46,062 nucleotides of DNA from Actinomycetota bacterium (GTDB lineage Bacteria > Actinomycetota > Acidimicrobiia > Acidimicrobiales > VFJN01): contig JBKPHE010000045.1 in the NCBI GenBank assembly GCA_046744485.1, positions 1 through 46,062 of the forward strand. Reading direction: 5' to 3'. Positions 9,632 through 28,996 of this stretch are shown piece by piece; position 1 is the stretch's first letter; every line of letters starts with the position of its first letter. The notes below the pieces were generated by a model that was not told the origin of the DNA, did not search any database, and saw nothing but the letters and a program-made list of their open reading frames with translations. The position numbers and the translations under genes were made by a program.

Positions 9632-10471
9632 TCAGGCCTCCTCGAGGACGAGCAGCCCGTTGTGGGTGGTCGACGTGGGCACATGCGTGGCTCGGTACAC
9701 CTCGCGCACGCCCGGCCCCAGTGCGCCGCGCATGACGAGCCACATGACGAGCTCGATGCCCTCCGAGCCAGCCTCCCGCAGGTACTCGACGTGGGGGATG
9801 CCGGCGATCGACTCGGGGTCGGCCACCAGCCCGTCGAGAAACCTGGTGTCGAAATCGACGTTGATGAAGCCGGCCCGCTCGCCCTGCAGTTGGTGTGACA
9901 TGCCGCCGGTGCCGAAGACGACCACCCGCTCGTCGCCCTCGAAGGCATCGATCGCCCGGCGGATGGCCTGGCCCAGCCGGTAACAGCGGTGGCCGGTCGG
10001 CGGCGGGTACTGGACCACGTTGACGCAGACTGGGATGACCCGGCTCGGCCACACCGTCGGCTGGCCGAACATGACCGACAACGGCACCGTGAGCCCGTGG
10101 TCGACCGGCATCTCGTTGACGAGGGTGAGGTCGAACTCGTCGATGATGAGCGACTCGGCCAGGTGCCAGGCCAGTTCCGGATGGCCCTGAACGACGGGCA
10201 CGGGGCGGGGGCCATAGCCCTCGTCGGCGGGCGGGAACTGGTCGGCCAGCCCGAGGGCGAAGGTGGGGATCACCTCGAGCGAGAACGCGGAGGCGTGGTC
10301 GTTGTAGACCACGATGCAGACGTCGGGCCGCACCTCGGCCATCCAGGCGCGGGCCGGCTCCAGCTTGGCGAAGTAGGGCGCCCAGTAGGGCTCATCGGTC
10401 TTGCCCTTGTCGATCGCCGCCCCGACCGCGGGCACGTGCGAGCACCCGACACCGCCGACGAGCCGGGCCAT
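9632..10471 (-). CDS. ligB: Protocatechuate 4,5-dioxygenase beta subunit
   Basis: 'SHVPAVG', 'YNDHASAF', 'ADEGYGPRP', 'VDHGLTVPL', 'GGMSHQLQG', 'GSEGIE'. Confidence 0.93.
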   Translation of the reverse strand: MARLVGGVGCSHVPAVGAAIDKGKTDEPYWAPYFAKLEPARAWMAEVRPDVCIVVYNDHASAFSLEVIPTFALGLADQFPPADEGYGPRPVPVVQGHPELAWHLAESLIIDEFDLTLVNEMPVDHGLTVPLSVMFGQPTVWPSRVIPVCVNVVQYPPPTGHRCYRLGQAIRRAIDAFEGDERVVVFGTGGMSHQLQGERAGFINVDFDTRFLDGLVADPESIAGIPHVEYLREAGSEGIELVMWLVMRGALGPGVREVYRATHVPTSTTHNGLLVLEEA

Positions 10472-10866
10472 CAGCGGGCCTCCCACTCGTCGCGGCGGCG
10501 GTTCCCGTCGGGAGAACGACCCCCGTCGCGCATCATGTGGGCGAAGTCCTCGGCGGTCATGCCGGTGTGCTCACCGGCCAGGTCCTGGAAGGTCATCCCG
10601 TCGCACGCTGCCAGCTTGTACGTGTAGTACACGTTGCCACCGAGCTCCAGGAGCCGCAGCCACTCGCGCCGCAGCACGGCCTCCCGCTGCTCGTCGTCCA
10701 GAGCGAAACGGTCGAGGTAGGCGCGCTCGTCGTTCCGGAAGGCATCGCGGTTGGCCGGCTGGTTGAGCGACATCAGGAACTTGTTGAGCGCGTAGCCCCT
10801 CCGGCTGCGCCCTCCGTCGAACACAATCGTCCCCGGGATGTCGTCGTACTCGTGGGGTGCCGGCAA
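10471..10866 (-). CDS. ligA: Protocatechuate 4,5-dioxygenase alpha subunit
   Basis: 'DIPGTIVFD..RSRRGYALNKFLMSL..NR..F..DERAYLD', 'GGNVYY..KL'; TTG start after ggaggg; stop overlaps ligB ATG. Confidence 0.92.
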   Translation of the reverse strand: MPAPHEYDDIPGTIVFDGGRSRRGYALNKFLMSLNQPANRDAFRNDERAYLDRFALDDEQREAVLRREWLRLLELGGNVYYTYKLAACDGMTFQDLAGEHTGMTAEDFAHMMRDGGRSPDGNRRRDEWEAR

Positions 10867-10910
10867 CGGACCACTCCCTCCTCGATGGGCGGTCGTCAGA
10901 CTAGCATCCA

Positions 10911-10934
10911 GCTGTTGACAAGATTGTTCACAAT
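10911..10934. promoter_or_regulatory. Tandem palindromic operator (GCTGTTGACAAG + ATTGTTCACAAT) in the divergent ligA/ligJ promoter
   Basis: AT-rich palindromes in GC-rich DNA; same motif at 14205, 19590 and 31101; resembles FadR/VanR-type GntR sites. Confidence 0.78.
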
Positions 10935-10948
10935 GTGAGCGGAACGCG

Positions 10949-11965
10949 ATGATCATCGATTGCCACGGGCACTACACCACGGCCCCGCCTCCACTCGGCG
11001 AGTTCCGCGAGGCGCAGAAGGCGGCCCTGGCCACCGACCCCGATCATGTCGGGGAGAAGGGCGTGGTCGCGATTGGCGACGACCAGATCCGGGAGAGCTT
11101 GGAGGGCGCCCAGCTGCGGTACCAGCGTCAGCGGGGCACCGACCTGACCCTGTTCTCCCCGCGGGCGTCGTGGATGGGCCACCACATCGGCAACATTCAC
11201 ACGAGCCGGTTCTGGACCGAGCACTGCAACGAGTTGATCCGGCGGGTCTGCGACCTGTACCCGCAGAACTTCGCCCCGGTGTGCCAGCTTCCGCAGTCCC
11301 CGGGCGCAGCGGTCGAGCCCTCGGTGCGCGAGCTACGGCGGTGCGTCGACGAGATGGGCTTCGTGGGCGCCAACGTCAACCCCGACCCCTCGGGCGGGTA
11401 CTGGGACGGCCCGCCGCTGGGCGATCGTTACTGGTACCCGCTGTACGAGGCACTGTGCGAGCTCGACGTCCCGGCCATGGTCCACGTGAGCGCCGCCTGC
11501 AACCCGCAGTTCCACACCACGGGGTCGCACTACCTCGGCGCCGACACGACGGCGTTCATGCAGTTGCTCACCTCCGACGTGTTCGCCGACTTCCCTGAGC
11601 TGCGCATCGTCATCCCCCACGGCGGCGGCGCCGTTCCCTACCACTGGGGCCGGTTCCGCGGCCTGGCGCAGGACATGGGCAAGCAGCCCCTCGAGGAGCT
11701 GCTGCTGGGGAACGTGTACTTCGACACCTGCGTGTACCACCAGGCCGGCATCGACTGCCTGCTGGCGGTGATCCCGGCGGAGAATGTCCTGTTCGCCTCG
11801 GAGATGATCGGGGCGGTGCGCGGCATCGACCCCGAGACCGGTCACCACTTCGACGACACGCGCCGGTACCTCGACGCCGCCGGGCTGGGCGAGGCCGAGC
11901 GCACCAAGATCTTCGAGACCAACGCCCGCCGCGTCTACCCGCGCCTGGAAGGAATCGCCGCATGA
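10949..11965 (+). CDS. ligJ: 4-oxalomesaconate hydratase (amidohydrolase fold)
   Basis: 'IIDCHGHYTTAP', 'FSPRASWMGHH', 'NPDPSGG', 'HGGGAVPYHWGRFRG', 'FASEMIGAVRG'. Confidence 0.93.
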   Translation: MIIDCHGHYTTAPPPLGEFREAQKAALATDPDHVGEKGVVAIGDDQIRESLEGAQLRYQRQRGTDLTLFSPRASWMGHHIGNIHTSRFWTEHCNELIRRVCDLYPQNFAPVCQLPQSPGAAVEPSVRELRRCVDEMGFVGANVNPDPSGGYWDGPPLGDRYWYPLYEALCELDVPAMVHVSAACNPQFHTTGSHYLGADTTAFMQLLTSDVFADFPELRIVIPHGGGAVPYHWGRFRGLAQDMGKQPLEELLLGNVYFDTCVYHQAGIDCLLAVIPAENVLFASEMIGAVRGIDPETGHHFDDTRRYLDAAGLGEAERTKIFETNARRVYPRLEGIAA

Positions 11966-12648
11966 ACGCCCGCCACGTCGTCGTCCGCACGATCGAACGC
12001 GCCGACCGCAGCGCTGTCGACGGCCTCGGCGGGCTCGGCACCGCCACGGTGCACGAGGCCATCGGGCGGCGCGGGTTTGCCGGCCCCCAGCTCCGCCCGA
12101 TCCAGCAAGGCACGCGGCTTGCCGGCACCGCCGTCACCGTGTCGAGCCACCCGGGCGACAATCTGATGATCCACGCCGCGGTGGAGGTGTGCCAGGAGGG
12201 CGACGTGCTCGTGGTTACCAACACGGCCCCGTCGACCCACGGCGTGTTCGGCGAGCTGCTGGCGTCGTCGTTCATGGCCCGGGGGGTGCGGGCGCTCGTG
12301 ACCGACGCCGGTGTGCGCGATACGGCGGAGCTGCGCGAGATGGGCTTCGCCGTGTGGTCGCAGCACGTGTCGTGCCAGGGGACCGTGACGGCCAGCCCCG
12401 GCTCGGTGAACGTCCCGGTCGTCCTCGGAGGGCAGGTCGTGGTGAGCCCCGGCGACGTCGTGTGTGGCGACGACGACGGGATTGTGGTGGTGCCGCGTGA
12501 CGAGGCGGCCTGGGCGCTCGAACGTTCGCGCGAGCGCGCGGCCAAGGAGGACGGCACGCGCGCCCGCCTCGCCGCGGGCGAGCTCGGCGTCGACATCTAC
12601 GGCCTGCGTGCCACGCTCGAGGCGCTGGGCGTGGAGTACGTCGGATGA
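11962..12648 (+). CDS. ligK: 4-carboxy-4-hydroxy-2-oxoadipate aldolase/oxaloacetate decarboxylase
   Basis: 'ATVHEA.GR.G', 'PGDNLMIHAA', 'DAGVRD', 'GSVNVPV', 'GELGVDIY'. Confidence 0.9.
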   Translation: MNARHVVVRTIERADRSAVDGLGGLGTATVHEAIGRRGFAGPQLRPIQQGTRLAGTAVTVSSHPGDNLMIHAAVEVCQEGDVLVVTNTAPSTHGVFGELLASSFMARGVRALVTDAGVRDTAELREMGFAVWSQHVSCQGTVTASPGSVNVPVVLGGQVVVSPGDVVCGDDDGIVVVPRDEAAWALERSRERAAKEDGTRARLAAGELGVDIYGLRATLEALGVEYVG

Positions 12649-13451
12649 CGGCGGTGGCGCGGGTCTGCGTCTTCGGGCTCGGCGAGGCCGGTTCGCTCAT
12701 CGCCGGCGACCTCGCCATGATCCCGGAGGTCGAGGTCCACGGCTACGACCCGGCCGAGGTGGAGACCCCGCCCGGCGTGGTGCGCCATGGCCACCCCGAG
12801 GCGGCGGCGGTCGGTGCCGACCTGGTGCTCGGCATCACCGCGGCCGCCGACGCCACGGTGGCGCTCACCCAGGCGCTCGACGCCATCCCCCGGGGGGCGG
12901 TCTACGCGGACCTCGCTACGGCGTCTGCCGGGCTCCAGCGGAGCTTGGCCGCGACTGCGGCCGCCGCCGGCCTGGGCTTCACCGACGTGGCGCTCATGTC
13001 ACCGGTGCACGGAACGGGACTGCGCACGCCGGCGTTGGCGTCGGGCCCAGCCGCCCGGGCATTCGTCGCGGCCATGGCACCGCTCGGCATGCCGGTGGAG
13101 CACGCGGGCGACGAGCCCGGGATGGCGGCGACCCGCAAGTTGCTGCGCAGCGTCGTCGTCAAGGGGTTGACGGCGCTGGTCGTCGAATCGATGCAGGCCG
13201 CCGAGGCGGCGGGGCTCGCGACCGAGACCTGGGACAACATCGTGGGCCAGCTCAGCGCGGCCGACGAGGGGCTCATCCGGCGGCTGGTCGCCGGGACCGG
13301 GCGGCATGCGGCCCGCCGCGTCCACGAGATGGAGGCGGCCGCCGAGCTGCTGGCGGAGCTGGGCGTAGAGCCCATCATGACCAATGCCACCGCAGCGCAG
13401 CTCCGCAGCGTGGCGGCCGACGCCGCGGCCGTCCCTTCGCTCCCGGGCTGA
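12645..13451 (+). CDS. NAD(P)-dependent 6PGD/beta-hydroxyacid dehydrogenase-like protein (DUF1932 C-terminus)
   Basis: 'GLGEAG' Rossmann motif, 'KLLRSVVVKGL', 'HAARRVHEM'; ATGA overlap with ligK. Confidence 0.85.
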   Translation: MTAVARVCVFGLGEAGSLIAGDLAMIPEVEVHGYDPAEVETPPGVVRHGHPEAAAVGADLVLGITAAADATVALTQALDAIPRGAVYADLATASAGLQRSLAATAAAAGLGFTDVALMSPVHGTGLRTPALASGPAARAFVAAMAPLGMPVEHAGDEPGMAATRKLLRSVVVKGLTALVVESMQAAEAAGLATETWDNIVGQLSAADEGLIRRLVAGTGRHAARRVHEMEAAAELLAELGVEPIMTNATAAQLRSVAADAAAVPSLPG

Positions 13452-13473
13452 CGGTCGCAGCGTGTGCCCAGGG

Positions 13474-14118
13474 TCACGCGCGCGTGTCGAACGCCTCCCA
13501 GTGGCGCAGGACGTCGATCACCGACGCCAGGTGGGCGCGCATCGCCGCCTCGGCGGCGGGCGCGTCGCCGGACGTCACCGCGTCGACGATGGCACGGTGC
13601 TGGGTGAGTGACTCGGCCGCACGGCCGGGCACCAGAGCCAACCGGAACTGGTGGTGGGCGGCACGGTTCCGCAGATTGGCCACCAGATCGTCGGCCACCT
13701 GGTGGCGGGCGATGCGGCAGAGCGAGCCGTGCAGGTTGCGGTTGAGCTTCGAGTAGGCGAGCTTGTCGTCCTGCTCGACGGCTTCGGTCATCTCGGCGAG
13801 CACGGCTCGGAGCCGGTCGCGCTCGATGTCGCTGGCTCGTTCGGCCGCGAGCCGGGCGATGAGACCTTCGAGCGCGGCCCGGGCCTCCGTGATCTCGACG
13901 GCCTCGGCGACGCTGATGCGGCGCACGGTGGCGCCCCGGTTGGCCTCGCGCTGCACGAGGCCCTCGGCGTCGAGCTCGACCAGCGCGGCCCGGATCGCCG
14001 CCCGACCGACGCCGTACCGCTCGGTCAGCTGTAGTTCGATCAGCCGTTCACCGGGCGGGAAGGCACCTTGGAGGATGTCATCTCGTAGCCGGTCGGCTAC
14101 GGGGGTCGCGATCACCAT
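13474..14118 (-). CDS. GntR family (FadR/FCD) transcriptional regulator
   Basis: 'LRDDILQG.FPPGERL.E..L..RYGVGR..IRAAL..L.AEGLV'; FCD His motifs 'N..LH', 'QHRAI', 'MRAH'. Confidence 0.92.
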   Translation of the reverse strand: MVIATPVADRLRDDILQGAFPPGERLIELQLTERYGVGRAAIRAALVELDAEGLVQREANRGATVRRISVAEAVEITEARAALEGLIARLAAERASDIERDRLRAVLAEMTEAVEQDDKLAYSKLNRNLHGSLCRIARHQVADDLVANLRNRAAHHQFRLALVPGRAAESLTQHRAIVDAVTSGDAPAAEAAMRAHLASVIDVLRHWEAFDTRA

Positions 14119-14204
14119 GGTCCGGTCAGTCTCTCAACTGGGCTGCACACGTTGGCGGATTCGCCGGGCCACGTGGGTTCGTGGAGCGCCGCATGACGGG
14201 GGAG

Positions 14205-14228
14205 ATCGTCAACAGTATTGTGCACAAC
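14205..14228. promoter_or_regulatory. Tandem operator (ATCGTCAACAGT + ATTGTGCACAAC) between gntR and ligC
   Basis: Same 12+12 bp architecture as 10911-10934. Confidence 0.72.
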
Positions 14229-14249
14229 ACGCCATCGTAGAGGAGGGGC

Positions 14250-15200
14250 ATGGCTCAGCGCATGGGGGTCGTGGTGGCCGGTGAGGGCGCGATCGCCCGC
14301 CAGCACATGGCCGCGCTGCGCCGCATCGAGGACGTCGAGGTGATCGGCGTTGCCGGGGGCGACCGCACGGCCACCGCCAGCTTCGCGGCCGAGTTCGGCA
14401 TCCCACGCCACGGGGTCGACCTGGAAGAGATGCTCGACGAGCCCGGGGTGGACGCCGCCATCCTCGCCAGTCCCACACCGGTCCACGCCGCACAGGCCAT
14501 CGAGGTCATGGACGCCGGCAAGCACGTCCTGATCGAGATCCCGATGGCCGACTGCCTGGCGGACGCAGAGGCCGTCGTCGCCGCCCAGCGGCGCACCGGC
14601 GTCACGGCCATGGTGTGCCACACCCGCCGGTTCAACCCGAGCCACCAGTGGGTCCACCGCCGGATCGTCTCGGGCGAGCTGACGCTGCAGCACCTGATCG
14701 TCTCGACGTTGTTCTTCCGCCGCGAGAACAAGAACGCGCTCGGCCAGCCTCGCTCGTGGACCGACAACCTCCTGTGGCACCACGCCTGCCACACGGTCGA
14801 CCTGTTCATCCATCAGACCGGTGAGATCCCGGCGAAGGCATGGGCGCAGCAGGGACCGCCGCATCCCGAGCTCGGCATCGCCATGGACCTCACGGTCGGG
14901 TTGCAGGCCCCGTCCGGGGCGCTGTGCACGCTGGCGCTGTCGTTCAACAACGACGGGCCACTCGGGACGACGTTCCGCTACATCGGCGACACCGGCACGT
15001 ACATCGCCCGGTACGACGACCTGGTCGACGGCTACGACGAGGCGATCGACGTGTCCGACGTGGACGTCTCGACGGACGGCATCGAGAACCAGGACCGCGA
15101 GTTCGTCGCGGCGGTGCGCGACGGGCGTGAACCGGCCGCGAGCGTCGCGCAGTGCCGGCCGACCATGCAGACGCTCGACCGCCTCGAGCAGAGCCTGTGA
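14250..15200 (+). CDS. ligC: 4-carboxy-2-hydroxymuconate-6-semialdehyde dehydrogenase (Gfo/Idh/MocA)
   Basis: 'AGKHVLIEIP', 'HTRRFNPSHQW', 'FFRRENKNALGQPRSWTD.LLWHHACHTVD', 'LSFNNDGPLG'. Confidence 0.92.
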   Translation: MAQRMGVVVAGEGAIARQHMAALRRIEDVEVIGVAGGDRTATASFAAEFGIPRHGVDLEEMLDEPGVDAAILASPTPVHAAQAIEVMDAGKHVLIEIPMADCLADAEAVVAAQRRTGVTAMVCHTRRFNPSHQWVHRRIVSGELTLQHLIVSTLFFRRENKNALGQPRSWTDNLLWHHACHTVDLFIHQTGEIPAKAWAQQGPPHPELGIAMDLTVGLQAPSGALCTLALSFNNDGPLGTTFRYIGDTGTYIARYDDLVDGYDEAIDVSDVDVSTDGIENQDREFVAAVRDGREPAASVAQCRPTMQTLDRLEQSL

Positions 15201-16390
15201 ACACCCTGCCCGGCGTGCCCGCACAGGTGCCGGTGGTGATCATCGGGGGTGGCCCCGCCGGGCTGTTGCTCGCCCGGCTGCTGGCGCTCCGGGGTGTCGA
15301 GTCGGTCGTCCTCGAGCGCCAGAGCCGCGAACACGTGTTGGCCCGGGTCCGGGCGGGGGTACTCGAGTGGGGCACCGTCGAGACGCTGCGGGCGGCGGGC
15401 GTCGGGGAGCGCATGGACCGAGAAGGCACGGTCCACGACGGCGTCGGCCTCAGTTTCTCGGGCCGTCACGTGCGGATCGACTTCAAGGGCCTCACCGGCA
15501 AGGGCGTGATGGTCTACGGCCAGACCCAGGTCACCAAGGACCTGTACGCCGCGGTCGACGGCATGGGCGTGCCGGTCTTCGACTGCGCAGCGGACGTCGT
15601 CCCCCACGACGTGTCCGGCACGGCTCCGTACGTCACGTTCGTCAGGGAGGGCACGAGCCATCGCATCGACTGCGACCACGTTGCTGGCTGCGACGGTTCC
15701 CACGGCGTGAGCCGCACTGTGATACCGCCGTCGGTGCTCCGCACCTACGAGCGGATCTATCCCTTCGGCTGGCTCGGCATCCTGTCCGAGACACCCCCGG
15801 TCGACAAGGAACTGATCTATGCCCACAGCGAGCGGGGCTTCGCCCTGTGTTCGATGCGCCACTCGATGCTGAGCCGCTACTACGTGCAGTGCGAGATCGA
15901 CGACGGGCTCGACGACTGGCCGGACGAGCGGTTCTGGGTGGAATTGCGCGGCCGCCTGCCCGGCGAGGTAGCGGGCCGTCTGGTGACGGGCCCCTCCATC
16001 GAGAAGTCGCTGACGCCGCTGCGCAGCTTCGTTGCCGAGCCGCTGCGGTACGGGCGGCTCTACCTGGCCGGCGACGCCGGCCACGTCGTCCCACCCACGG
16101 GCGCCAAGGGCCTCAACCTCGCCGTCTCCGACGTCTGCTACCTGGCCACCGCGCTCGCCGACGCGGTGCACCGCCGCACGACCGGGGGCCTTGACCAGTA
16201 CTCGGGGCGGGCCCTGGCCCGCGTCTGGAAGGCCGTCCGCTTCTCGTGGTGGTTGACCATACTCATGCACCACTTCCCCGGCAGCGCCGAGTTCGACCGC
16301 CGCATCCAGGAAGCCGAGCTCGACTACCTGGCCGGCTCGGAGTCGGCCCAGCGGGCGTTCGCCGAGAACTACACGGGACTGCCGCTGTGA
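15197..16390 (+). CDS. pobA: 4-hydroxybenzoate 3-monooxygenase
   Basis: 'GGGPAG', 'RVRAGVLE', 'VYGQT', 'GCDG.HG', 'YPFGWLG', 'AGDAGH.VPPTGAKGLNLA', 'AENYTGLP'. Confidence 0.95.
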   Translation: MNTLPGVPAQVPVVIIGGGPAGLLLARLLALRGVESVVLERQSREHVLARVRAGVLEWGTVETLRAAGVGERMDREGTVHDGVGLSFSGRHVRIDFKGLTGKGVMVYGQTQVTKDLYAAVDGMGVPVFDCAADVVPHDVSGTAPYVTFVREGTSHRIDCDHVAGCDGSHGVSRTVIPPSVLRTYERIYPFGWLGILSETPPVDKELIYAHSERGFALCSMRHSMLSRYYVQCEIDDGLDDWPDERFWVELRGRLPGEVAGRLVTGPSIEKSLTPLRSFVAEPLRYGRLYLAGDAGHVVPPTGAKGLNLAVSDVCYLATALADAVHRRTTGGLDQYSGRALARVWKAVRFSWWLTILMHHFPGSAEFDRRIQEAELDYLAGSESAQRAFAENYTGLPL

Positions 16391-16413
16391 AGGCGGCGAG
16401 AAGGGAGACCGAC

Positions 16414-17532
16414 ATGCCGCACCGCACCGCCCCACCGTTCCGCGCCGACCACGTGGGGAGCCTGTTGCGCCCGCCAGAGGTGCTCCAGGCCCGGGAGGAG
16501 GCCGCCGCCGGGCGCATCACCGCCGAGGAGCGGCGGGCCATCGAGGACGAGGCCATCGCCGAGGTGGTCAAGATGCAGGAGGACATCGGCCTCCAGTCCG
16601 CCACCGACGGCGAGTTCCGCCGCCGGTTCTGGCACATGGACTTCATCTACCAGCTCGGGGGCATCCACCCGGGCGAGGACACGCTCAGGATCCATTTCCG
16701 CGACGAGCGGGGCGAGCTGTCGGCCGAGACACCGGTGCTGGTCATCGACGAGCGGATCTCGCTGCCCCACCCCATCTTCGGCGACGACTTCGCCGCGCTC
16801 GCCTCGATGACCACCACGGCGACGCCGAAGCTGACCATCCCGTCGCCGAGCATGGTCCACTATCGGGGCGGCCCGGCGGCGCTCGATCCCGACGTCTATC
16901 CCGACATGGACCAGTTCTGGGACGACCTGAGCTCCGCCTACGCGCAGCAGGTCGCCGCCGTGGCGGAGCTGGGGTGCACCTACCTGCAGTTCGACGACAC
17001 CAGCCTGGCGTACCTCAACGACCCGCAGCAGCGCGCCATGCTCACCGAGCGGGGCGACGACGCGGAGCACCAGCACCTGCGGTACATCCGCCAGATCAAC
17101 GCCGCCCTCGCCGACAAGCCCGAGGGCATGAGCGTCACGACCCACCTGTGCCGGGGCAACTACCGCTCGGCGTGGGCGGCGGAGGGGAGCTACGACTTCG
17201 TCGCCGAGGCGCTGTTCAACGAGCTGGCGGTCGACGGGTTCTTCCTCGAGTACGACGACGAGCGGTCGGGCGGCTTCGAGCCGCTGAGGTTCGTGCCACC
17301 GGGAAAGATGGTGGTGCTCGGCCTCGTGACCACCAAGCGCCCGGCGCTCGAGAGCAAGGACGTGCTCAAGCGCCGCATCGACGAGGCTGCGCGCCACGTC
17401 CCGCTCGACCAACTCTGCCTCTCGCCGCAGTGCGGGTTCTCGTCCACCGTCGAGGGCAACCTGCTCACCTACGACGACGAGGTCGCCAAGCTCCGCCTCA
17501 TCGTCGAGGTCGCCGGCGAGGTCTGGGGCTAG
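16414..17532 (+). CDS. Cobalamin-independent methionine synthase II (MetE catalytic-domain-only) family protein
   Basis: 'RADHVGSLLRP', 'TDGEFRR', Zn ligands 'HLCRGN', 'LEYD', 'SPQCGF'; lacks the N-terminal MetE half. Confidence 0.88.
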   Translation: MPHRTAPPFRADHVGSLLRPPEVLQAREEAAAGRITAEERRAIEDEAIAEVVKMQEDIGLQSATDGEFRRRFWHMDFIYQLGGIHPGEDTLRIHFRDERGELSAETPVLVIDERISLPHPIFGDDFAALASMTTTATPKLTIPSPSMVHYRGGPAALDPDVYPDMDQFWDDLSSAYAQQVAAVAELGCTYLQFDDTSLAYLNDPQQRAMLTERGDDAEHQHLRYIRQINAALADKPEGMSVTTHLCRGNYRSAWAAEGSYDFVAEALFNELAVDGFFLEYDDERSGGFEPLRFVPPGKMVVLGLVTTKRPALESKDVLKRRIDEAARHVPLDQLCLSPQCGFSSTVEGNLLTYDDEVAKLRLIVEVAGEVWG

Positions 17533-17533
17533 A

Positions 17534-17592
17534 CCGCAACGTTCCGGCGTTCGTTTGCGCCGGTTTTCGGCGTTTGGGAACGCCGGTTGCGG
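17534..17592. terminator. Imperfect inverted repeat between convergent genes (terminator or REP-like)
   Basis: ccgcaa..ccggcgttc pairs with gaacgccgg-ttgcgg. Confidence 0.45.
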
Positions 17593-17613
17593 GGCGGGTC
17601 AGGTGGGCTCGCC

Positions 17614-18486
17614 TCAGCCGAAGTCGTAGAGGCGCTGGGGGTTATCGACGAGGATGCGGTTGCGGGTGGCCTCGTCGGGCGCGAACTCGGCGAGCAGGTC
17701 GACCAGGTCGCCGTCGTCGGGCATGTGGCGCACGTTGGGATGCGGCCAGTCGGTTCCCCATAGCACGCGGTCGGGAGCGGCGGCGATGAGCGCCCGGGCG
17801 TAGGGGACCACGTCGTCGTACGGCGGCGGGCCCGCGGCCGTGAGTCGCTCGGCGCCCGACACCTTGACCCAACAGCGGTCGTCGGCGACGAGTCGCAGCA
17901 GCGCCTGGAACGGCTCCTGATCGAGCCCGGAAGTGGCGTCGACCCGGGCCATGTGGTCGATGACGCAGGGGCAGGGCATGCGGTCGAGCAACCCGGCATA
18001 CGTGGGCAGGTCGGCGGCGTCGAAATGGAGGACGACGTGCCAGCCGCGCGGCGCGACCCGCGCCACCGTGCGGTCGAAGCGCTCCAGGTCGGGGGCGCCG
18101 CCGAGGTGGGCGACGAAGTTGACGCGCGTTCCCCGGACCCCGGCCTCGTGCAACTCGTCGAGCTCGGCGTCGCCGGTGGCGTCGTCGATCATCGCCACAC
18201 CCGCGTAGCGCCCCTTGCCCTGGAGAAGTGCGTCGAGCAAGGCGGCATTGTCGGTTCCGTGGCAGCTCGCCTGGACGAGCACCGCCCGCTCGAGCCCGAG
18301 GCGGTCGTGGAGCCGCCGCAGGTCGTCGGCGCCGGCGTCCGGCGGGGTGTACCGGCGGGTGGGCGCGAAGGGGAAGCGGTCGGCCGGGCCGAACACGTGG
18401 CAGTGGGCGTCGCAGGCGCCGGGTGGGGGAGTGAACGCCCGCGGCGCATGGGGGTCGGGATGCGGCGCAGGGATCGTGCCCTCCAT
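17614..18486 (-). CDS. ligI: 2-pyrone-4,6-dicarboxylate lactonase
   Basis: 'DAHCHVFGP..RFPF', 'VQASCHGTDN', 'IDHMAR', 'WVKVSGAER', 'WGTDWPHPN'. Confidence 0.92.
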   Translation of the reverse strand: MEGTIPAPHPDPHAPRAFTPPPGACDAHCHVFGPADRFPFAPTRRYTPPDAGADDLRRLHDRLGLERAVLVQASCHGTDNAALLDALLQGKGRYAGVAMIDDATGDAELDELHEAGVRGTRVNFVAHLGGAPDLERFDRTVARVAPRGWHVVLHFDAADLPTYAGLLDRMPCPCVIDHMARVDATSGLDQEPFQALLRLVADDRCWVKVSGAERLTAAGPPPYDDVVPYARALIAAAPDRVLWGTDWPHPNVRHMPDDGDLVDLLAEFAPDEATRNRILVDNPQRLYDFG

Positions 18487-19574
18487 CACGGTTTCCGCGG
18501 GAACACGGTGCCGTCCATGAGCTTGCGGGCCGTGCGGATGATGCCGGCCCGCTCCACCACGGGGACACCGTCGACCAGCGCCAGGTCGACCGCGGCGTCG
18601 AACGTCCCAGTGGGGTGCTCGATGGTCACGACCCCTCCGTCGTCCCTGGCGTCGGCATTGCCGAGCTTGGCGACCTCGGCCGCCGGTCCCTCGGGAAGGA
18701 GAGCCGCAGTCGCCACTGTCACCGCCCCGAGCACCCCGATGGCATCGTGGCACCGGTGGGGGATGAACGTGCGGGTGGCGATTGCGCCGCCCGCCCGTGG
18801 CGCGGCCACGAGCGTCAGCTTCGGCACCGTCGTCGCCGCCACGTCGCCCAGGTTCATGAGCGGCCCCGCCGCCAGGCGGACCCGCTCGAGGGTCTCGCGC
18901 AGGGGGTCGTCGGCCTCGAGCTCGGCGCAGCTCTCATGGCCGGTGATGCCCAGGTCGCCGGCGCTTAGGACCACCACGGGCATGCCGTTGTCGATCAGCG
19001 TCACCGCGAGCCCTTCGACCTGGTCGACGGCCCGGCCCGTGGGGAGGAGCGCGCCGCAGGACGAGCCCGCGATCCCCTCGAAGTCCAGCCGAATGGGCGC
19101 GGCCGTGCCGGGAACGCCGGAGATCGACGCAGGGCCGTCGTAGCGGGGCCGACCCTCGGCGAGCGGCACTGTGGCGGTGGCCTGCCCGCCCGTGTTGACC
19201 ATGTGGATGCGGATGGCGGCCGTGTCGCCGGCCGGCTGGGCCACCAGATCGCGCTCGAGCGCGAACGGCGCGACGCCGGCGAGCAGGTTGCCGCAGTTCT
19301 GCCGGTCGGTGACCACGGCATCGTCGACGACCACCTGGAGGAAGTGGTAGTCGACGTCGGCCGTGTCCGCCGTGGCCGGCCCGACCACGGCGACCTTGCT
19401 CGTCAGGGGGTGCGCGCCGCCCATGCCGTCGATCTGCCGTGCGTCGGGCGATCCCATGATGCGGAGCAACAGGTCGTCGCGGTTGGCCTCGTCGGTGGGG
19501 AGGTCGTCGGCCAGGAAGTAGAGGCCTTTGGACGTCCCCCCTCGCATCACCATGCACCGGATCCCGTCGCGCAC
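18486..19574 (-). CDS. ligU: 4-oxalomesaconate tautomerase (PrpF/FldA family)
   Basis: 'MRGGTSKG', 'RQIDGMGGAHPLTSKVA', 'NCGN', 'HDAIGV', 'EHPTG', 'RTARKLMDG'; GTG start at 19574, likely leaderless. Confidence 0.9.
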   Translation of the reverse strand: MRDGIRCMVMRGGTSKGLYFLADDLPTDEANRDDLLLRIMGSPDARQIDGMGGAHPLTSKVAVVGPATADTADVDYHFLQVVVDDAVVTDRQNCGNLLAGVAPFALERDLVAQPAGDTAAIRIHMVNTGGQATATVPLAEGRPRYDGPASISGVPGTAAPIRLDFEGIAGSSCGALLPTGRAVDQVEGLAVTLIDNGMPVVVLSAGDLGITGHESCAELEADDPLRETLERVRLAAGPLMNLGDVAATTVPKLTLVAAPRAGGAIATRTFIPHRCHDAIGVLGAVTVATAALLPEGPAAEVAKLGNADARDDGGVVTIEHPTGTFDAAVDLALVDGVPVVERAGIIRTARKLMDGTVFPRKP

Positions 19575-19589
19575 GGCGCCAGTGTGCAC

Positions 19590-19613
19590 GATGTTCACAT
19601 AATTGTCGACAAT
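19590..19613. promoter_or_regulatory. Tandem operator (GATGTTCACATA + ATTGTCGACAAT) between ligU and the ABC/box operon
   Basis: Perfect palindrome ATTGTCGACAAT at 19602-19613 plus an adjacent partial copy; weaker TTTGCGCGCAAT near 19648. Confidence 0.78.
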
Positions 19614-19697
19614 ATCGGCGCTCGCCGGGCTCAAGAGCTAGGGTTCCTTTGCGCGCAATCGTGGTGACGATCGCGTGTACCACGAAGGGGGGACGAC

Positions 19698-23288: not shown

Positions 23289-24328
23289 CCCGCCGGGCGG
23301 CGACCGTGGGCAGGGTGGGCACCTCGGCGGTGCGCGCCTACGCACCCGTCGTGTTGGCCGGCGCCGTGACGGCGCTCCTGCCGCTGCGCTACGGCGACTC
23401 GCGGCCGATGATGGGCGTCGTCATCGGCGGTGTGCTGTTCGCCTGCTACGCCGTCGGGTTCAACCTCATCTTCGGGAGTACCGGCCAGCTCTTCCTGTGC
23501 ACGGGTGCCCTTGCGGGCCTCGGTGGGTATTCGTCGGCGATCCTGAGCGACCGGCACGGCCTCCCCATGGTGCTGACGATGCTGCTCGCCAGTCTCGTGG
23601 CGGCCGTCGCCGGTGGGCTGTTGAGCTGGATTGCGGTGAGCCGATCGCTGGGCGTGATCTTCACCGGCATCGTGACCCTGGCGTTCGCCCTGTCGTTCCA
23701 GAACCTGCTGCTCGGTCAGCGCGACCTCACCGGCGGCGAGACCGGGCTGGTGGTAGAGGCCGGATCGGACACCTTGCTCGGTGAACAGGTGGCGCCGTTC
23801 TACGTGTTCGTCGCGCTCCTCACCGCTTACCTGGCCCTGTTCCGGTCGCTGCAGCGGTCGCACGTCGGATGGGCGTTCCGCGCCCTGCGTGACGACGAGA
23901 TCGCAGCCGAGCTGGCCGGGGTCGACGTCAAGAAGTATCGGGTCCTGGCGGGCACGCTGGGCTCGGGGATGATCGGGCTCGCCGGGGCGCTCTACGCCCA
24001 CAGCGAGGGCTTCATCAGCCCGTCGACGTTCAGCTTCGGCGAGGTCGACGTGCTCGTCATCGTCATGCTCGCGTTCGGCGGCATCGGCAGCCTGCTCGGC
24101 CCGGTGGTCGGCGCCGCCGCATTCACCGTCCTCGAGGAGTGGATGGACTCGTTCAACGAGTACCGGCTGATCATCTACGGGTCGGTGATCCTGGTCCTGT
24201 TCCTCGTGCTGCCGCGCGGCGTCGTTCCAACCGTGCAGGGGCTGGTCGAGCGCATGCGCCGGCGGTGGGCCCGGCGCGTCCCGGCCCCCGCAGCCCGTCC
24301 CCCCGTCGATACCCTCACCCCCAGATGA
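23285..24328 (+). CDS. ABC transporter permease (LivM-like)
   Basis: 'NLIFGSTGQ', 'TGGETG', 'ALRDDEIAA..GV', 'GGIGSLLGPVVGA', 'PRGV'. Confidence 0.88.
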   Translation: MTRRAATVGRVGTSAVRAYAPVVLAGAVTALLPLRYGDSRPMMGVVIGGVLFACYAVGFNLIFGSTGQLFLCTGALAGLGGYSSAILSDRHGLPMVLTMLLASLVAAVAGGLLSWIAVSRSLGVIFTGIVTLAFALSFQNLLLGQRDLTGGETGLVVEAGSDTLLGEQVAPFYVFVALLTAYLALFRSLQRSHVGWAFRALRDDEIAAELAGVDVKKYRVLAGTLGSGMIGLAGALYAHSEGFISPSTFSFGEVDVLVIVMLAFGGIGSLLGPVVGAAAFTVLEEWMDSFNEYRLIIYGSVILVLFLVLPRGVVPTVQGLVERMRRRWARRVPAPAARPPVDTLTPR

Positions 24329-25980
24329 CGATCGAGCTCCGGACCGATCCGTCCTCGTACCGGCACTGGGAGCTGTCGGTCGACGGGCCGGTGGCGACGC
24401 TCACCATGCGGGTCACGCCCGATGCCGGCCTGCGCGACGACTACCAGCTCAAGCTCAACAGCTACGACCTCGGCGTCGACATCGAGCTGCACGACGCCGT
24501 CCAGCGGCTGCGCTTCGAGCATCCCGAGGTCAAGGCGGTGGTGCTCACCGGCGGGCTCGACAAGGTCTTCTGCTCGGGTGCGAACATCCAGATGCTGGCG
24601 GGGTCGACACACGCCGACAAGGTGAACTTCTGCAAGTTCACCAACGAGACGCGCAACGCCATCGAGGACGCCACCGCCCACTCGGGCCAGACATGGATCG
24701 CGGCGGTCAACGGCACCGCTGCGGGCGGTGGCTACGAGCTGGCCCTGGCGTGCGACGAGATCCTGCTCGTCGACGACCGGTCCTCGGCCGTGTCGCTGCC
24801 CGAGGTGCCGCTCCTGGCGGTGCTGCCCGGCACGGGCGGGCTGACGCGGTTGGTCGACAAGCGCGGCGTGCGGCGCGACCGGGCCGACGTGTTCGCCACC
24901 CGGGCCGAGGGCATGAAGGGTCGGCAGGTGGAGACGTGGGGACTGGTCGACGCCGTCGTGCCACGGAGCCGTTTCGACGAGGCGGTGCAGGAACGGGCGC
25001 GGGCGCGCGCCGCCACATCCGACCGCCCGGATGGCGGGCCCGGGGTGCCGCTGGTGCCCCTCGGGAGCGAGCTCGACGGTGACCGGCTGCGCTACAGCAC
25101 GGTGTCCGTGCGCATCGACCGGGGGCTGGGCGCAGCGTTCGTCACGGTCCACGCGCCGACCGGATCCGAGCCGTCCGATCCCGCCGGCCTGCTCGCCGCC
25201 GGATCCTCGGCCTGGGTGCTGTCGGTCGTCCGAGAGCTCGACGACGCCATCCTGCGGCTCCGGTTCGACGAGCCTGAGGTCGGCACGTGGGTGCTGCGCA
25301 CCGAGGGCTCCCCGGCCCACGTCGTCGCCGCCGAGGAGCCGTTGGCCACCGAGCCCTCCGAGCATTGGCTGGCCCGGGAGATTCGCCTGTTCTGGTGCCG
25401 CACCCTCAAGCGCCTCGACCTGTCCGCCCGGACGCTGGTGGCGCTGGTCGAGCCCGGTAGCTGCTTCGCCGGGTTGCTCGCTGAGCTCGTCCTCGCCGCC
25501 GACCGGTCGTTCATGCTCGATGGCACGCAGCCGGACAGCGACCTGCCGGCTCCGCACCTCCGGCTGACGCCGGCGAACGATGGCTGGTTCCCCACCTCCA
25601 ACGGGCTCAGCCGCCTCGCCACCAGGTTCTGGGGGGACGACGAGGCCCTCGAGGCAGCTCGGGCACGGATCGGCAAGGACTTGGTCGCAGCCGAGGCCGC
25701 CGATGCCGGCCTGGTGACGTTCACGCCCGACGAGATCGACTGGGACGAGGAGGTGCGGCTCACGCTCGAGGAGCGCGCGGCCTTCTCGCCCGACGCCCTC
25801 ACCGGCATGGAGGCCAACCTTCGCTTCGCCGGGCCCGAAACCATGGAGACCAAGATCTTCGGCCGGTTGTCCGCCTGGCAGAACTGGATCTTCCAACGCC
25901 CCAACGCCGTCGGCAGTGAAGGTGCCCTGCGGCGCTTCGGCACGGGCTCGCGGCCGTCCTACGATCGGACAAGAACATGA
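24325..25980 (+). CDS. boxC: 2,3-epoxybenzoyl-CoA dihydrolase
   Basis: 'KLNSYDLGVDIELHDAVQRLRFEHPEV', 'NFCKFTNETRN', 'PDALTGMEANLRF..ETMETKIFGRLSAWQNWIFQRPNA'. Confidence 0.95.
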   Translation: MTIELRTDPSSYRHWELSVDGPVATLTMRVTPDAGLRDDYQLKLNSYDLGVDIELHDAVQRLRFEHPEVKAVVLTGGLDKVFCSGANIQMLAGSTHADKVNFCKFTNETRNAIEDATAHSGQTWIAAVNGTAAGGGYELALACDEILLVDDRSSAVSLPEVPLLAVLPGTGGLTRLVDKRGVRRDRADVFATRAEGMKGRQVETWGLVDAVVPRSRFDEAVQERARARAATSDRPDGGPGVPLVPLGSELDGDRLRYSTVSVRIDRGLGAAFVTVHAPTGSEPSDPAGLLAAGSSAWVLSVVRELDDAILRLRFDEPEVGTWVLRTEGSPAHVVAAEEPLATEPSEHWLAREIRLFWCRTLKRLDLSARTLVALVEPGSCFAGLLAELVLAADRSFMLDGTQPDSDLPAPHLRLTPANDGWFPTSNGLSRLATRFWGDDEALEAARARIGKDLVAAEAADAGLVTFTPDEIDWDEEVRLTLEERAAFSPDALTGMEANLRFAGPETMETKIFGRLSAWQNWIFQRPNAVGSEGALRRFGTGSRPSYDRTRT

Positions 25981-25989
25981 GGTGCCCTC

Positions 25990-27399
25990 ATGACCGTCGT
26001 CGACATCGACGCCGCGATCCCGAACAACGTTGATCTCGCCGGTGACCGCCGTCTCCGACGGGCTCTCGAGTCGTGGCAGCCGCGCTTCATCGAGTGGTGG
26101 AAGGAGCTCGGGCCGGTTGCCTTCCAGGACCACGACGTGTACCTCCGCACCGCCATCGCCGTCGGCCAGGAGGGTTGGGCCAACTTCGACTACGTCAAGA
26201 TGCCGGACTATCGCTGGGGCATCTTCCTCGCCGACCCGGAGGCCGATCGCCGCATCGGCTTCGGTGACCACCGCGGCGGGCCGGTGTGGCAGGAGGTGCC
26301 CGGTGAGCACCGGGCCGACCTACGCCGGCTGGTCGTCGTCCAGGGCGACACGGAGCCGGCCTCGGTGGAGCAGCAGCGTGCGTTGTGCCTGACGGCGCCG
26401 AGCCTCTACGACCTGCGCAACCTCTTCCAGGTCAACGTCGAGGAGGGCCGTCACCTCTGGGCCATGGTGTACCTGCTGCACCGCCACTTCGGGCGCGACG
26501 GCCGGGATGAGGCCGACGAGATGCTGGAGCGCCACGCCGGCGACGAGGACAACCCGCGCATCCTGGGGGCGTTCAACGAGCCGACGCCCGATTGGCTGTC
26601 GTACTTCTTCTTCACCTACTTCACGGACCGCGACGGGAAGTTCCAGCTCGCCTCGCTGCGCGAGAGCGGTTTCGAACCGCTGGCGCGGACCTGCGACTTC
26701 ATGCTCAAGGAGGAGGCGCATCACATGTTCGTGGGCGCCACCGGCGTGGGGCGCGTGGTGGAGCGCACGGTCGAGCTGATGCGCCAGCACGACACCGACG
26801 ACGTCCGGCCCCACGGCGGGATCGACGTCGCCACGCTGCAGCGCTACCTCAACCTGCACTACAGCGTCTCGCTGGACCTGTTCGGCGCGGAGACGTCGAC
26901 CAACGCGGCCAACTACTACGCCGCCGGGCTCAAGGGCCGCTTCCGGGAGGCCGCGCGCGACGACGACCATCGGTTGCTCGACGCCACCCGCGCCGTGCCG
27001 TGCGTGGTCGGCGGGCGCCTCGGCGAACGGGAGGCGCCGGCGCTCGCCGCCCTCAACGAGACCCTTCGCGACGACTACGTCGCCGACTGCCGGAAGGGTG
27101 TCGAGCGGTGGAACCGGGTCTTGGCCGAGGTCGGGTGCGAGCTCGTGCTGCCCCACGTCGGCTTCCACCGGGCGGTCGGCGAGTTCGCCTCGCATCGCGT
27201 GAGCCCCGACGGCCGGATGCTCACCGAGGACGAGTGGTCCGCCTGTGCTCCGGGCTGGTTGCCGACCGACGACGACCGCGCCCACGTCGAGTCGCTCATG
27301 GTCGGCGTCCACGAGGCGGGGAAGATGGCGAGCTGGATCGCGGCGCCGTCGGCGGGCATCCACCAGAAGCCGGTGGACTACGACTACGTGCGGATGTGA
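25990..27399 (+). CDS. boxB: Benzoyl-CoA 2,3-epoxidase subunit (diiron)
   Basis: 'IPNNVDL', 'QGDTEPASVEQQ', 'NVEEGRHLWAM', 'TDRDGKFQL', 'EEAHH', 'DYDYVR'. Confidence 0.95.
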   Translation: MTVVDIDAAIPNNVDLAGDRRLRRALESWQPRFIEWWKELGPVAFQDHDVYLRTAIAVGQEGWANFDYVKMPDYRWGIFLADPEADRRIGFGDHRGGPVWQEVPGEHRADLRRLVVVQGDTEPASVEQQRALCLTAPSLYDLRNLFQVNVEEGRHLWAMVYLLHRHFGRDGRDEADEMLERHAGDEDNPRILGAFNEPTPDWLSYFFFTYFTDRDGKFQLASLRESGFEPLARTCDFMLKEEAHHMFVGATGVGRVVERTVELMRQHDTDDVRPHGGIDVATLQRYLNLHYSVSLDLFGAETSTNAANYYAAGLKGRFREAARDDDHRLLDATRAVPCVVGGRLGEREAPALAALNETLRDDYVADCRKGVERWNRVLAEVGCELVLPHVGFHRAVGEFASHRVSPDGRMLTEDEWSACAPGWLPTDDDRAHVESLMVGVHEAGKMASWIAAPSAGIHQKPVDYDYVRM

Positions 27400-27418
27400 C
27401 GCGTCCGGAGGGGGACAC

Positions 27419-28996
27419 ATGGGCCACTACAACGCCGCCGCATGGCTGCTCGATCGCCAGCTCGACGGTGGTCACGGCGACCGGACCGCGTACCGGATCG
27501 ACGGGCGCTCGGTCAGCTACGACGACCTGTGCGACGAGGTGTGGCGGGCCCAGAACGCCCTGCACGAGCTGGACGTCCGCCGGGGGGAGCGGGTGGCGCT
27601 GGTCGTCGACGACGAGCTGGCCTTCCCGGCCTGGTTCCTGGGTGCGCTGCGCGCCGGCGTGGTCCCGGTGCCCCTGTCGACCATGCTCACCACCGACGAG
27701 CTCGCGGCGATCGTCGCCGACGCCGGCGCGGGTGCCGTCGTGGTGTCGGCCGGCTACCGGGAGCACCTCGCCGCCATGGCGGCGGGGCCGTCGGAGCTCC
27801 GCAACGCGGTCGTGATCGGTGACCCGGCGGACGCGGGTGCGCTTCCGGTGCACGGCTGGTCGGCCTTCACCGACCGCTCCGAGGCGCCCGTGGCCCGGAC
27901 CGGGCCCGACTCGCCGGCGTTCTGGCTCTACAGCTCGGGGACCACGGGTTCGCCCAAGGGGGCGATGCACCGCCACGCCAGCCTGCAGGCCACGGCCGAG
28001 ACCTACGCCCGGTCGGTCCTCGAGATCGGGCCCGACGACCGCTGCCTGTCGGTGGCGAAGCTGTTCTTCGCGTACGGGCTCGGTAACTCCCTGACCTTCC
28101 CGCTCTCCGTGGGGGCGAGCGCCGTGCTCAACCCCCGACGTCCGACGCCGGCCGACGTGCTCGACCTGGTCCGGGACGAACGGCCCACCCTGTTCTTCGC
28201 CACCCCCGGCTTCGTCGCCGCGCTGCTCGACGCCGCGCCGGCCGACGACGCCTTCGCCTCGGTGCGGTCCACGGTCACCGCCGGCGAGGCGCTGCCGGCG
28301 GACCTGCACCGGCGGTTCCACGCCCGCTTCGGCCATCCCGTTCTCGACGGGATCGGCACGACGGAGGCGCTGCACATCTTCCTGTCCAACACCAAGGGCG
28401 CCGAGCGAGCCGGCACCAGTGGCACACCGGTTCCCGGCTACGAGGCCCGGCTCGTCGATGACACCGGCGGCGAGGTCACCGCACCCGACACGCCGGGGCA
28501 CCTCCAGGTGCGGGGGCCGTCGCTCGCCACCGGGTACTGGTGCCGCGACGCCGCCACGCGGGCCGCGTTCCTGGGGGAGTGGCTGGTAACGGGCGACGTC
28601 TACGGCCGGTCGGCCGACGGCTACTGGACGTTCCTCGGCCGCAACAACGACATGATCAAGGCCGGCGGCATCTGGGTGTCGCCCGCCGAGGTCGAGGGCG
28701 TCCTCGTCGAGCATCCCGACGTGCTCGAAGCCGCGGTGGTGGGCGGCCGGGACGCGGACGGGCTCGAGGTCACCGTCGCCTTCCTGGTCCCCCGCGCCGG
28801 GCACCACATCGACCCCGCCGGCGTCGACGCCCACTGCCGCGGCCGGATGGCGGCCTTCAAGCGCCCCCGCCGCATCGAGGTGGTCGACCAGCTCCCCAAG
28901 ACGGCCACCGGCAAGGTCAGGCGGTTCGCCCTGCGCGAGCGGCTGGCGGTCATCCGGCCCGGTGGGGCGTCCGTCATCGCCGGCGAGAGCGACTGA
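27419..28996 (+). CDS. Benzoate-CoA ligase family protein
   Basis: 'YNAA', 'AFWLYSSGTTGSPKG.MH', 'AKLFFAYGLGN', 'DGIGTTE.LHIFLSN', 'PKTATGK'. Confidence 0.92.
   Translation: MGHYNAAAWLLDRQLDGGHGDRTAYRIDGRSVSYDDLCDEVWRAQNALHELDVRRGERVALVVDDELAFPAWFLGALRAGVVPVPLSTMLTTDELAAIVADAGAGAVVVSAGYREHLAAMAAGPSELRNAVVIGDPADAGALPVHGWSAFTDRSEAPVARTGPDSPAFWLYSSGTTGSPKGAMHRHASLQATAETYARSVLEIGPDDRCLSVAKLFFAYGLGNSLTFPLSVGASAVLNPRRPTPADVLDLVRDERPTLFFATPGFVAALLDAAPADDAFASVRSTVTAGEALPADLHRRFHARFGHPVLDGIGTTEALHIFLSNTKGAERAGTSGTPVPGYEARLVDDTGGEVTAPDTPGHLQVRGPSLATGYWCRDAATRAAFLGEWLVTGDVYGRSADGYWTFLGRNNDMIKAGGIWVSPAEVEGVLVEHPDVLEAAVVGGRDADGLEVTVAFLVPRAGHHIDPAGVDAHCRGRMAAFKRPRRIEVVDQLPKTATGKVRRFALRERLAVIRPGGASVIAGESD

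Follow-up and report, generated by a model that had tools for sequence, protein, structure and literature searches.

The ligC-pobA-M1 run and its candidate operator

The window analyzed here, i.e., the whole stretch of 46,062 nt of contig JBKPHE010000045.1, stems from a 3.5-Mb genome (78% complete), whose closest relatives are labelled as Actinomycetota/Acidimicrobiales metagenome-assembled genomes. Amid genes for the degradation of aromatic acids it hosts a gene, termed M1, encoding a 372-aa single-barrel homolog of the methionine synthase MetE (Table 1). The link of the M1 clade to aromatic-acid funnelling is solid, while the reaction of M1 is a proposal based on sequence. M1 is the last gene of a ligC-pobA-M1 run, because the stop of the ligC-type gene overlaps the pobA start and the gene 3' of M1, a ligI-type amidohydrolase gene, is convergent to it. 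The spacer between the pobA stop and the M1 start measures exactly 23 nt and is AG-rich; the placement of M1 in a preliminary description of the window was borne out by the open reading frame (ORF) coordinates. Methionine-pathway genes and LigM/DesA were reported there to be missing from the window, and NCBIfam and Pfam scans of its main ORFs named none. The designations ligC, ligI, and ligJ are assigned from context, as the scans returned broad families only.

The shared operator suggested earlier for this run was corroborated by two sites of the pattern TTGT[G/T]CACAA (at 10924 and 14218, with 0.26 expected), which are the only two in the 3.5-Mb genome. Among 18 related loci scanned, 11 carry at least one of the two, and the GntR/FCD protein encoded divergently from ligC likely binds them. 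An Rfam scan detected no riboswitch in the window. S-adenosylmethionine (SAM) riboswitches and T-boxes were found in none of eight M1-clade loci and likewise in none of eight control loci, making this comparison uninformative. No terminator was predicted within 9000-20500 by a promoter/terminator scan that is weak for this organism. In respect to transcription, the best expression runs contain at most 14% of the query words. A 733-nt contig from the RNA library of a relative spans the pobA-M1 junction; since it demonstrates no co-transcription and no induction, it was given no weight.

Table 1. Features of the window (positions in nt) and M1-related genes of three further loci
Feature	Position	Strand	Basis or remark
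M1, single-barrel MetE homolog, YxjH/PRK06520 family	16414..17532	+	NF005085 435.6 bits, cut-off 313; 1YPX Z 40.5
pobA, 4-hydroxybenzoate 3-monooxygenase	15197..16390	+	TIGR02360 599.4, cut-off 538.7
ligC-type Gfo/Idh/MocA dehydrogenase, opens the run	14250..15200	+	PF19858, PF01408
Palindrome TTGTGCACAA, candidate GntR-type operator before ligC-pobA-M1	14218..14227	.	gntR/ligC gap
Second operator copy TTGTTCACAA	10924..10933	.	ligA/ligJ gap
Degenerate third operator copy upstream of ligU	19592..19613	-	judged by eye
GntR/FCD regulator, divergent from ligC	13474..14118	-	Pfam scan
ligA and ligB, protocatechuate 4,5-dioxygenase subunits	9632..10956	-	TIGR02792, NF009903 above cut-off
Amidohydrolase (ligJ by context), ligK aldolase, DUF1932 dehydrogenase	10949..13451	+	NCBIfam/Pfam scans
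Amidohydrolase (ligI by context) and 4-oxalomesaconate tautomerase (ligU), convergent on M1	17614..19573	-	NF033377 above cut-off, Pfam
boxC, boxB, benzoate-CoA ligase; close to M1 only in near relatives	24325..28996	+	NCBIfam
Aromatic aldehyde dehydrogenase	31169..32614	+	best structures: 4-hydroxybenzaldehyde, salicylaldehyde, vanillin dehydrogenases
M2, divergent MetE-fold barrel (H-x-C/H/C) fused to SAM-methyltransferase	40648..42696	+	Pfam, HHalign
M3, other 'methionine synthase II' subfamily (H-x-C/E/C)	42728..43882	+	PF01717, alignment
PRK06520-like subclade genes between pobA and pcaC	L139:8461-9555, L152:8439-9524, L161:8466-9560		below family cut-off in L139

Association of the M1 clade with aromatic-acid funnelling

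Within ten genomes of the same genus, a full-length M1 is present in eight (85-94% identity), fragments in one, and no copy in the remaining one; all eight full-length copies follow pobA. We extended the comparison to the closest loci of a species collection (the best 80 of at least 497, 3 of which apparently represent the same genomes as the genus relatives). Here, lig, pca, or pobA genes were found in 30 loci, and pobA lies directly adjacent to M1 on the same strand in 24. These pobA-M1 pairs occur beside meta- and ortho-cleavage genes alike, the ring-cleavage partner outside the genus usually being the ortho pathway (pcaHG, pcaB, pcaDC, coenzyme A (CoA) transferases, and PcaR). The recurring core consists of an importer, an aldehyde dehydrogenase, pobA, and M1, and members of the aldehyde dehydrogenase family found in the window flank M1 in many other loci. 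As this core stays constant while the ring-cleavage partner varies, M1 is linked to the funnel and not to one set of ring-cleavage products. In a set of 106 M1-clade loci, pobA was recorded in 27, ortho pca genes in 25, an aromatic aldehyde dehydrogenase in 24, and meta lig genes in 8 cases, with box genes in 5, all of them from close relatives of the source genome. Also represented near M1 are the gallate and homoprotocatechuate routes, together with a benzoylformate decarboxylase and, in L107, an epoxidase of the Paa type. In L111 (8496-12099) and L114, a LysR gene is followed by an M1 ortholog heading an operon with a type II dehydroquinase, a Zn-dehydrogenase, and a xylose-isomerase-like barrel protein, located near pca genes; this operon resembles a quinate/shikimate operon.

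Co-occurrence with aromatic genes across genomes, named in the preliminary description as a check, was found in a random draw of 400 genomes across the phylum (two unpublished genomes, G149 and G427, are counted in the totals). At a threshold of at least 63% identity, the M1 clade comprises 24 genomes with 26 loci. pobA is present in 21 of these 24 genomes compared with 46 of the 376 others, and a test stratified within four families yielded p=0.003, although the p-values overstate the enrichment, since kin are not independent. The enrichment at genome level holds even where the M1-clade gene is unlinked. Protocatechuate/gallate clusters host 7 of the 26 M1-clade loci versus 0 of 27 control paralog loci, and some aromatic label was assigned at 14 of the 26, one label (a cupin in L108) being unconfirmed on re-check. 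The controls derive from 30 paralog loci (37-47% identity) taken from among the matches listed; three of them represent a distinct subclade with the order aldehyde dehydrogenase, pobA, gene, pcaC, and the other 27 carry no aromatic label. This subclade (L139, L152, L161; Table 1) has another pocket signature and has the RRRFW motif in common with M1. At 39-44% identity, the subclade abuts pobA in five genomes, including G363 and G367, for which adjacency was read from coordinates.

Homologs were also detected in 35 of 301 genomes, 300 of which had been drawn from the class of an alphaproteobacterial hit. We read 40 of the 57 other matches and found lig, pca, pobA, or ligM under a strict rule in five. 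The alphaproteobacterial homologs are located beside hpaB-like, hpaD, ligM, pca, lig/gal, pobA, or Rieske genes. In a FastTree phylogeny of 181 rows the aromatic label changes 23 times and is present in several separate subclades, with no order of events drawn from it. Recurrence of the linkage extends over two ring-cleavage pathways, two phyla, and no fewer than three separate subclades. On Klebsiella plasmids (L300:5998-12757), a urea ABC transporter operon is immediately preceded by a homolog of 47% identity, a context that suggests other donors or roles within the family.

Predicted fold and candidate reactions of M1

Family placement, likewise proposed earlier as a check, assigned M1 to YxjH/PRK06520 and neither to the core methionine synthases MesA-D nor to MetE. 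M1 exceeds the cut-off of the 'methionine synthase II' model NF005085/PRK06520 and stays below that of NF004875 (PRK06233 equivalog, B12-independent methionine synthase; 322.2 bits, cut-off 576). Against PRK09121, which we take to be the MesD family, it reached 31.9 bits (cut-off 392), with scores far under cut-off for PRK00957 and PRK04326 as well; canonical MetE (TIGR01371) gave 30 bits (cut-off 930), and the two-barrel build with an N-terminal folate-binding domain is absent. The AlphaFold model (pLDDT 94.1) matches best Listeria 1YPX (root-mean-square deviation 1.8, 316 aligned residues, 44% identity), which is also the best sequence match (E 1.5e-95), followed by MesD 3RPD (Z 33.4, 20% identity) and the catalytic halves of MetE (Z 27-32). 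A protein atlas offered only automatic methionine-synthase names for M1 matches. The apparent fusions P0003, P0010, and P0046, which resemble products of read-through or of ORF miscalling, were left out of the analysis.

The Zn ligands H-x-C/E/C, described earlier as intact, are predicted to be H244, C246, E279, and C340; 36 of 36 aligned rows show no change at H244, C246, or C340, and all four ligands are kept in 181 of 181 family rows. S16, E67, and D194 align with S433, E484, and D599 of Escherichia coli MetE, given as homocysteine-binding residues in excerpts of PMC7857596, and are kept in 109-110 of 110 M1-clade rows. The folate domain is missing from M1, as is any counterpart of the folate loop SYGNRYYRKP of split-MetE catalytic subunits; the Trp of these subunits aligns with R151. 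The M1 clade conserves H74, H149, Y150, R151, and Y200 (108-110 of 110 rows). Y150, R151, and Y200 differ in seven YxjH-like rows, and all five differ in 20 control-paralog rows. Based on alignment to MetE positions, and not on coordinates, R151, Y200, H74, and H149 are presumably residues of a methyl-donor site.

M1 shares family, fold, Zn and homocysteine-site residues, and the lack of a folate domain with YxjH-type proteins (NF005085/PRK06520, 1YPX, Lactobacillus paracasei yxjH). According to excerpts of PMC6004538, L. paracasei yxjH belongs to a methionine T-box regulon, is co-transcribed with luxS, and is induced by methionine starvation, whereas M1 resides in an aromatic operon with a candidate GntR-type operator; the M1 clade moreover conserves Y150/R151/Y200, at which YxjH-like rows differ. 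With MesA-D, which are described in parts of PMC7857596 and PMC7005905 as folate-independent single catalytic barrels with a Cys2-His-Glu zinc site, M1 has this architecture and the homocysteine-binding Ser/Glu/Asp in common. It differs by about 20% identity to 3RPD, by PRK models far under cut-off, and by a host that owns MetH, is not a methanogen like MesA/MesB/MesC hosts, and lacks a Wood-Ljungdahl corrinoid iron-sulfur protein over cut-off (CdhD family, 0 of 5 genus genomes with matching controls); the host encodes oxygenases. MesX (DUF1852) gave no match in five genus genomes, nor in any control genome. The available portion of PMC7857596, which defines MesA-D, holds no mention of yxjH or PRK06520, and PMC12366255, PMC10861871, and PMC7005905, as far as their excerpts go, deal with different core enzymes and do not settle the donors. 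LigM/DesA reportedly perform oxygen-independent, tetrahydrofolate-dependent methyl transfer from methoxy-aromatic acids, feeding protocatechuate/gallate. The comparison with the role proposed for M1 is one of working principle only, as LigM/DesA have a GcvT-type fold and a folate acceptor; M1 shows no similarity to them and co-occurs with LigM in some clusters. Catabolic recruitment of the MetE fold is represented by the epoxyalkane:coenzyme M (CoM) transferase XecA/EtnE, a zinc-thiolate alkyl transferase. M1 differs from it in that no alkene/CoM genes recur around M1; among the matches listed (best 40 of 102 for M1, best 40 of 45 for M3) no plasmid record was named epoxyalkane:CoM transferase.

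We tentatively propose M1 to be a zinc-thiolate transferase that moves methyl groups from methoxy-aromatic acids to homocysteine, a reading more apt to be wrong than right. The zinc site would activate homocysteine for direct methylation by a methoxylated aromatic acid of the vanillate, isovanillate, or anisate type, yielding methionine and protocatechuate or 4-hydroxybenzoate. In the funnel, M1 and PobA would then act side by side: hydroxy- and methoxy-benzoates would both come from the aldehyde dehydrogenase, with PobA accepting the former and M1 the latter. Homocysteine is fairly likely as acceptor, the gene neighborhood suggests the aromatic donor, and R151, Y200, H74, and H149 may line the donor site. 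Of the three reactions considered in the preliminary description, methyl acceptance from methoxy-aromatics would fit best, and addition to ring-cleavage acids retains some probability. Methyl groups of guaiacol derivatives can be trapped effectively by thiols (excerpts of PMC10946705). Doubtful, and even more so than the reaction of M1 itself, is the generalization that the M1 clade would constitute a widespread class of one-protein aryl O-demethylases, converting methoxy-benzoates and homocysteine to hydroxy-benzoates and methionine independently of oxygen, folate, and cobalamin.

The inventory of partner genes frames this proposal. The source genome encodes a full-length MetH (contig C58); no full MetE was found in it, and its MetE-like genes amount to six from at least four subfamilies, including three single-barrel ones on C37, C71, and C118. 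MetH exceeds the cut-off in 28 of 42 genomes with M1 or a related clade. Neither MetH nor MetE does so in the M1 genomes G041, G086, G168, G193, G205, G334, and G400, and the MetH-lacking genomes checked own other core or split MetE-like genes. LigM is present in 0 of 10 genus genomes and VanA_C matches are weak (at most 24 bits in the source genome, at most 43 bits in 3 of 5 relatives), leaving the aldehyde dehydrogenase of the vanillin/4-hydroxybenzaldehyde group without a known O-demethylase partner in the genus, a gap that M1 could fill. One GCV_T gene is located in the source genome on a contig other than that of the window; the search for this family (75 of 75 positive) was too broad to be used.

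Several findings weigh against the proposed demethylation, in addition to the inflated p-values mentioned above. No aromatic label was assigned to 46 of the 80 closest loci or to 12 of the 26 random-draw loci, and pobA directly abuts 0 of these 26. At the proposed donor site, the second subclade found next to pobA departs from the residues of M1. The homocysteine-site motifs also appear in M3 and other paralogs and thus do not fix the acceptor. The trapping of methyl groups by thiols described in PMC10946705 depends on cobalamin methyltransferases. LigM occurs more often with M1 (7 of 21 versus 2 of 46 pobA-positive genomes), and its gene shares a cluster with M1 in L122, L125, and L200. For VanA, no significant exclusion by M1 was seen (1 of 21 versus 7 of 46, p=0.42), and L196 contains a Rieske gene 39% like the VanA_C-type query. 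The co-occurrence with LigM can be reconciled under the added assumption that M1 prefers another position or substrate, such as para-methoxy acids or methyl esters. The vanillin-forming hydroxycinnamoyl-CoA lyase (PRK09120) was found in 0 of 80 genomes. One-carbon neighbors are few (metF/purU/folD in 3 of 106 loci, a MetH-like match in 1, with sahH and metK not searched for), which counts here because growth-level flux would need homocysteine recycling. Finally, the literature searched revealed no enzyme of the PRK06520/YxjH family with a demonstrated reaction. Two subsidiary ideas were rejected, namely M1 as a general replacement for LigM/VanA, as the mutual exclusion test failed, and a feed from ferulate to vanillin via the PRK09120 lyase.

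Unlikely, though a serious contender, is a role of M1 as back-up methionine synthase that works without B12, takes its methyl from a non-aromatic source (another partner, or methyl-folate from LigM), and is co-regulated with aromatics since catechols and oxygenases stress MetH or since aromatics supply one-carbon units. The intact homocysteine and Zn residues and the methionine regulon of L. paracasei yxjH are consistent with it, as are the seven M1 genomes with neither MetH nor MetE over cut-off, the source genome without full MetE, the enrichment of LigM, and the LigM-metF-purU-folD sets in the M1 clusters of L122 and L125. LigM is, however, below cut-off in 14 of the 21 pobA-positive M1 genomes, the folate domain and loop are missing, and the MetH-lacking genomes checked have the substitutes mentioned above. 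The candidate operator is moreover an aromatic one, with no riboswitch in the window (nor in control loci), and positions 151 and 198-200 distinguish the M1 clade from YxjH-like rows. Rather improbable is damage control, in which M1 would use its zinc to add or remove thiol or water on electrophilic by-products, i.e., catechol quinones, enone-type ring-cleavage products, or their methyl esters. The MetE fold is capable of thiol alkylation, as in epoxyalkane:CoM transferase, M1 often lies 3' of a catechol-forming hydroxylase (pobA, hpaB-like), and both the coexistence with LigM and the many linked routes (4,5- and 3,4-cleavage, gallate, homoprotocatechuate, benzoylformate decarboxylase, Paa-type epoxidase) argue for it. 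Ring-cleavage products are nevertheless chemically diverse, while the M1 pocket is kept almost throughout the clade (108-110 of 110 rows); the most constant neighbors are upstream funnel genes and importers, and the amino-acid-binding residues are retained.

The remaining explanations we consider far less probable. Historical hitch-hiking without functional tie to aromatics has a low probability: about half of the loci of the clade, including most Actinoplanes copies, have unrelated neighbors, which is outweighed by the recurrence over two pathways, at least three subclades, and two phyla, by the control paralogs (0 of 27 linked), and by the genome-wide pobA enrichment where M1 is unlinked. 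A shade lower still ranks a non-methylating catabolic lyase, e.g., a 3-dehydroshikimate dehydratase or an aromatic-acid decarboxylase, as might be read from the dehydroquinase and Zn-dehydrogenase near pca in L111/L114 and from the related fold of uroporphyrinogen decarboxylase (UROD; Z about 20). MetE-type barrels match the M1 model far better (Z 27-40) than UROD does, and dehydroquinase neighbors occur in 2 of 140 loci. Dehydroshikimate dehydratase was rejected, as it derives from these two loci only, whose operon has its own candidate, the xylose-isomerase-like TIM barrel. Hardly credible, and disfavored among the earlier suggestions, is scavenging of the BoxB epoxide/oxepin with a thiol in the manner of epoxyalkane:CoM transferase. 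It would draw on boxBC in the window, on the Paa-type epoxidase of L107, and on a ComA-family gene in 3 of 5 genus genomes (unlinked, on another contig, and of a family that also matches in B. subtilis and C. glutamicum). M1 is, however, part of the pobA run and not of the box run, and box genes are confined to the 5 of 106 M1-clade loci from close relatives.

If true, demethylation by M1 would couple lignin-monomer funnelling directly to methionine synthesis, provide the first known methyl donor for the YxjH family, and represent a new oxygen- and folate-free way to unmask plant-derived methoxy-aromatics such as lignin fragments. Aryl O-demethylation is a recognized bottleneck in lignin bioconversion (excerpts of PMC6021390), and a cofactor-light demethylase would therefore be useful. 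The pobA/protocatechuate-operon setting of a large conserved clade gives a short, testable list of donors, and should the proposed donor prove wrong, the housekeeping annotation is still rendered doubtful for the M1 clade by its linkage. Members of PRK06520/YxjH are routinely annotated as methionine synthases. In the literature searched, which covered few subscription papers, we found neither a biochemical assay for this family nor, among the papers listed, one placing it in aromatic catabolism.

M2, M3, and further features of the window

The preliminary description had counted two more distinct MetE-like proteins and regarded all three as one catabolic set. The count holds for M3 (PF01717; 24% identical to M1). 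M2 has no PF01717 match and no BLAST similarity to M1; its N-terminal barrel is MetE-like at profile level only (HHalign 92%, E 6e-7), its fourth metal ligand appears to be His in place of Glu, and its fusion to a SAM-methyltransferase had been missed. A catabolic instead of a housekeeping function is favored for M1, given the presence of MetH, the aromatic operator, and the conserved linkage, but not for the three genes as a set. M1, M2, and M3 share one island within the genus, with M2 and M3 located 23-26 kb from M1. lig, pob, pca, and box genes were found in 0 of 79 M2 loci, many of which are short, and an intradiol-dioxygenase neighbor in 9 of 79, all of at least 86% identity. Assigned to other families, M2 and M3 form a module of their own that shows no broad tie to aromatic genes.

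The M2 fusion is widespread (79 loci, 57-97% identity, many metagenome contigs) and stand-alone barrels are common (2667 matches). M3 follows M2 in 19 of the 79 M2 loci, and the pair travels together in close relatives. A MetH-domain-like neighbor was noted at 2 of the 79. Plasmid-borne M3 homologs are named only 'methionine synthase (II family)', and the two neighborhoods read contain no alkene/CoM genes.

In respect to the remaining window, boxC and boxB (24325-27399) are present, yet no boxA reductase was recognized among the scanned ORFs. An amidohydrolase gene at about 29000-29559 (+) between two CoA ligases has about 110 internal codons fewer, in frame, than the copy in G010 (L096), for which either a genuine deletion or an error of assembly may account. 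The pairing of amidohydrolase and CoA ligase resembles hydroxycinnamate beta-oxidation genes, a likeness that no family model confirmed. A phytanoyl-CoA-dioxygenase-like gene (5942-6727, -) scored 260.8 with a methylphosphonate hydroxylase model, under its cut-off of 500. Of the 80 closest loci, 7 keep the DUF1932 NAD-binding protein (12645-13451) after ligK; it may account for an as yet unassigned step of the 4,5-cleavage pathway.

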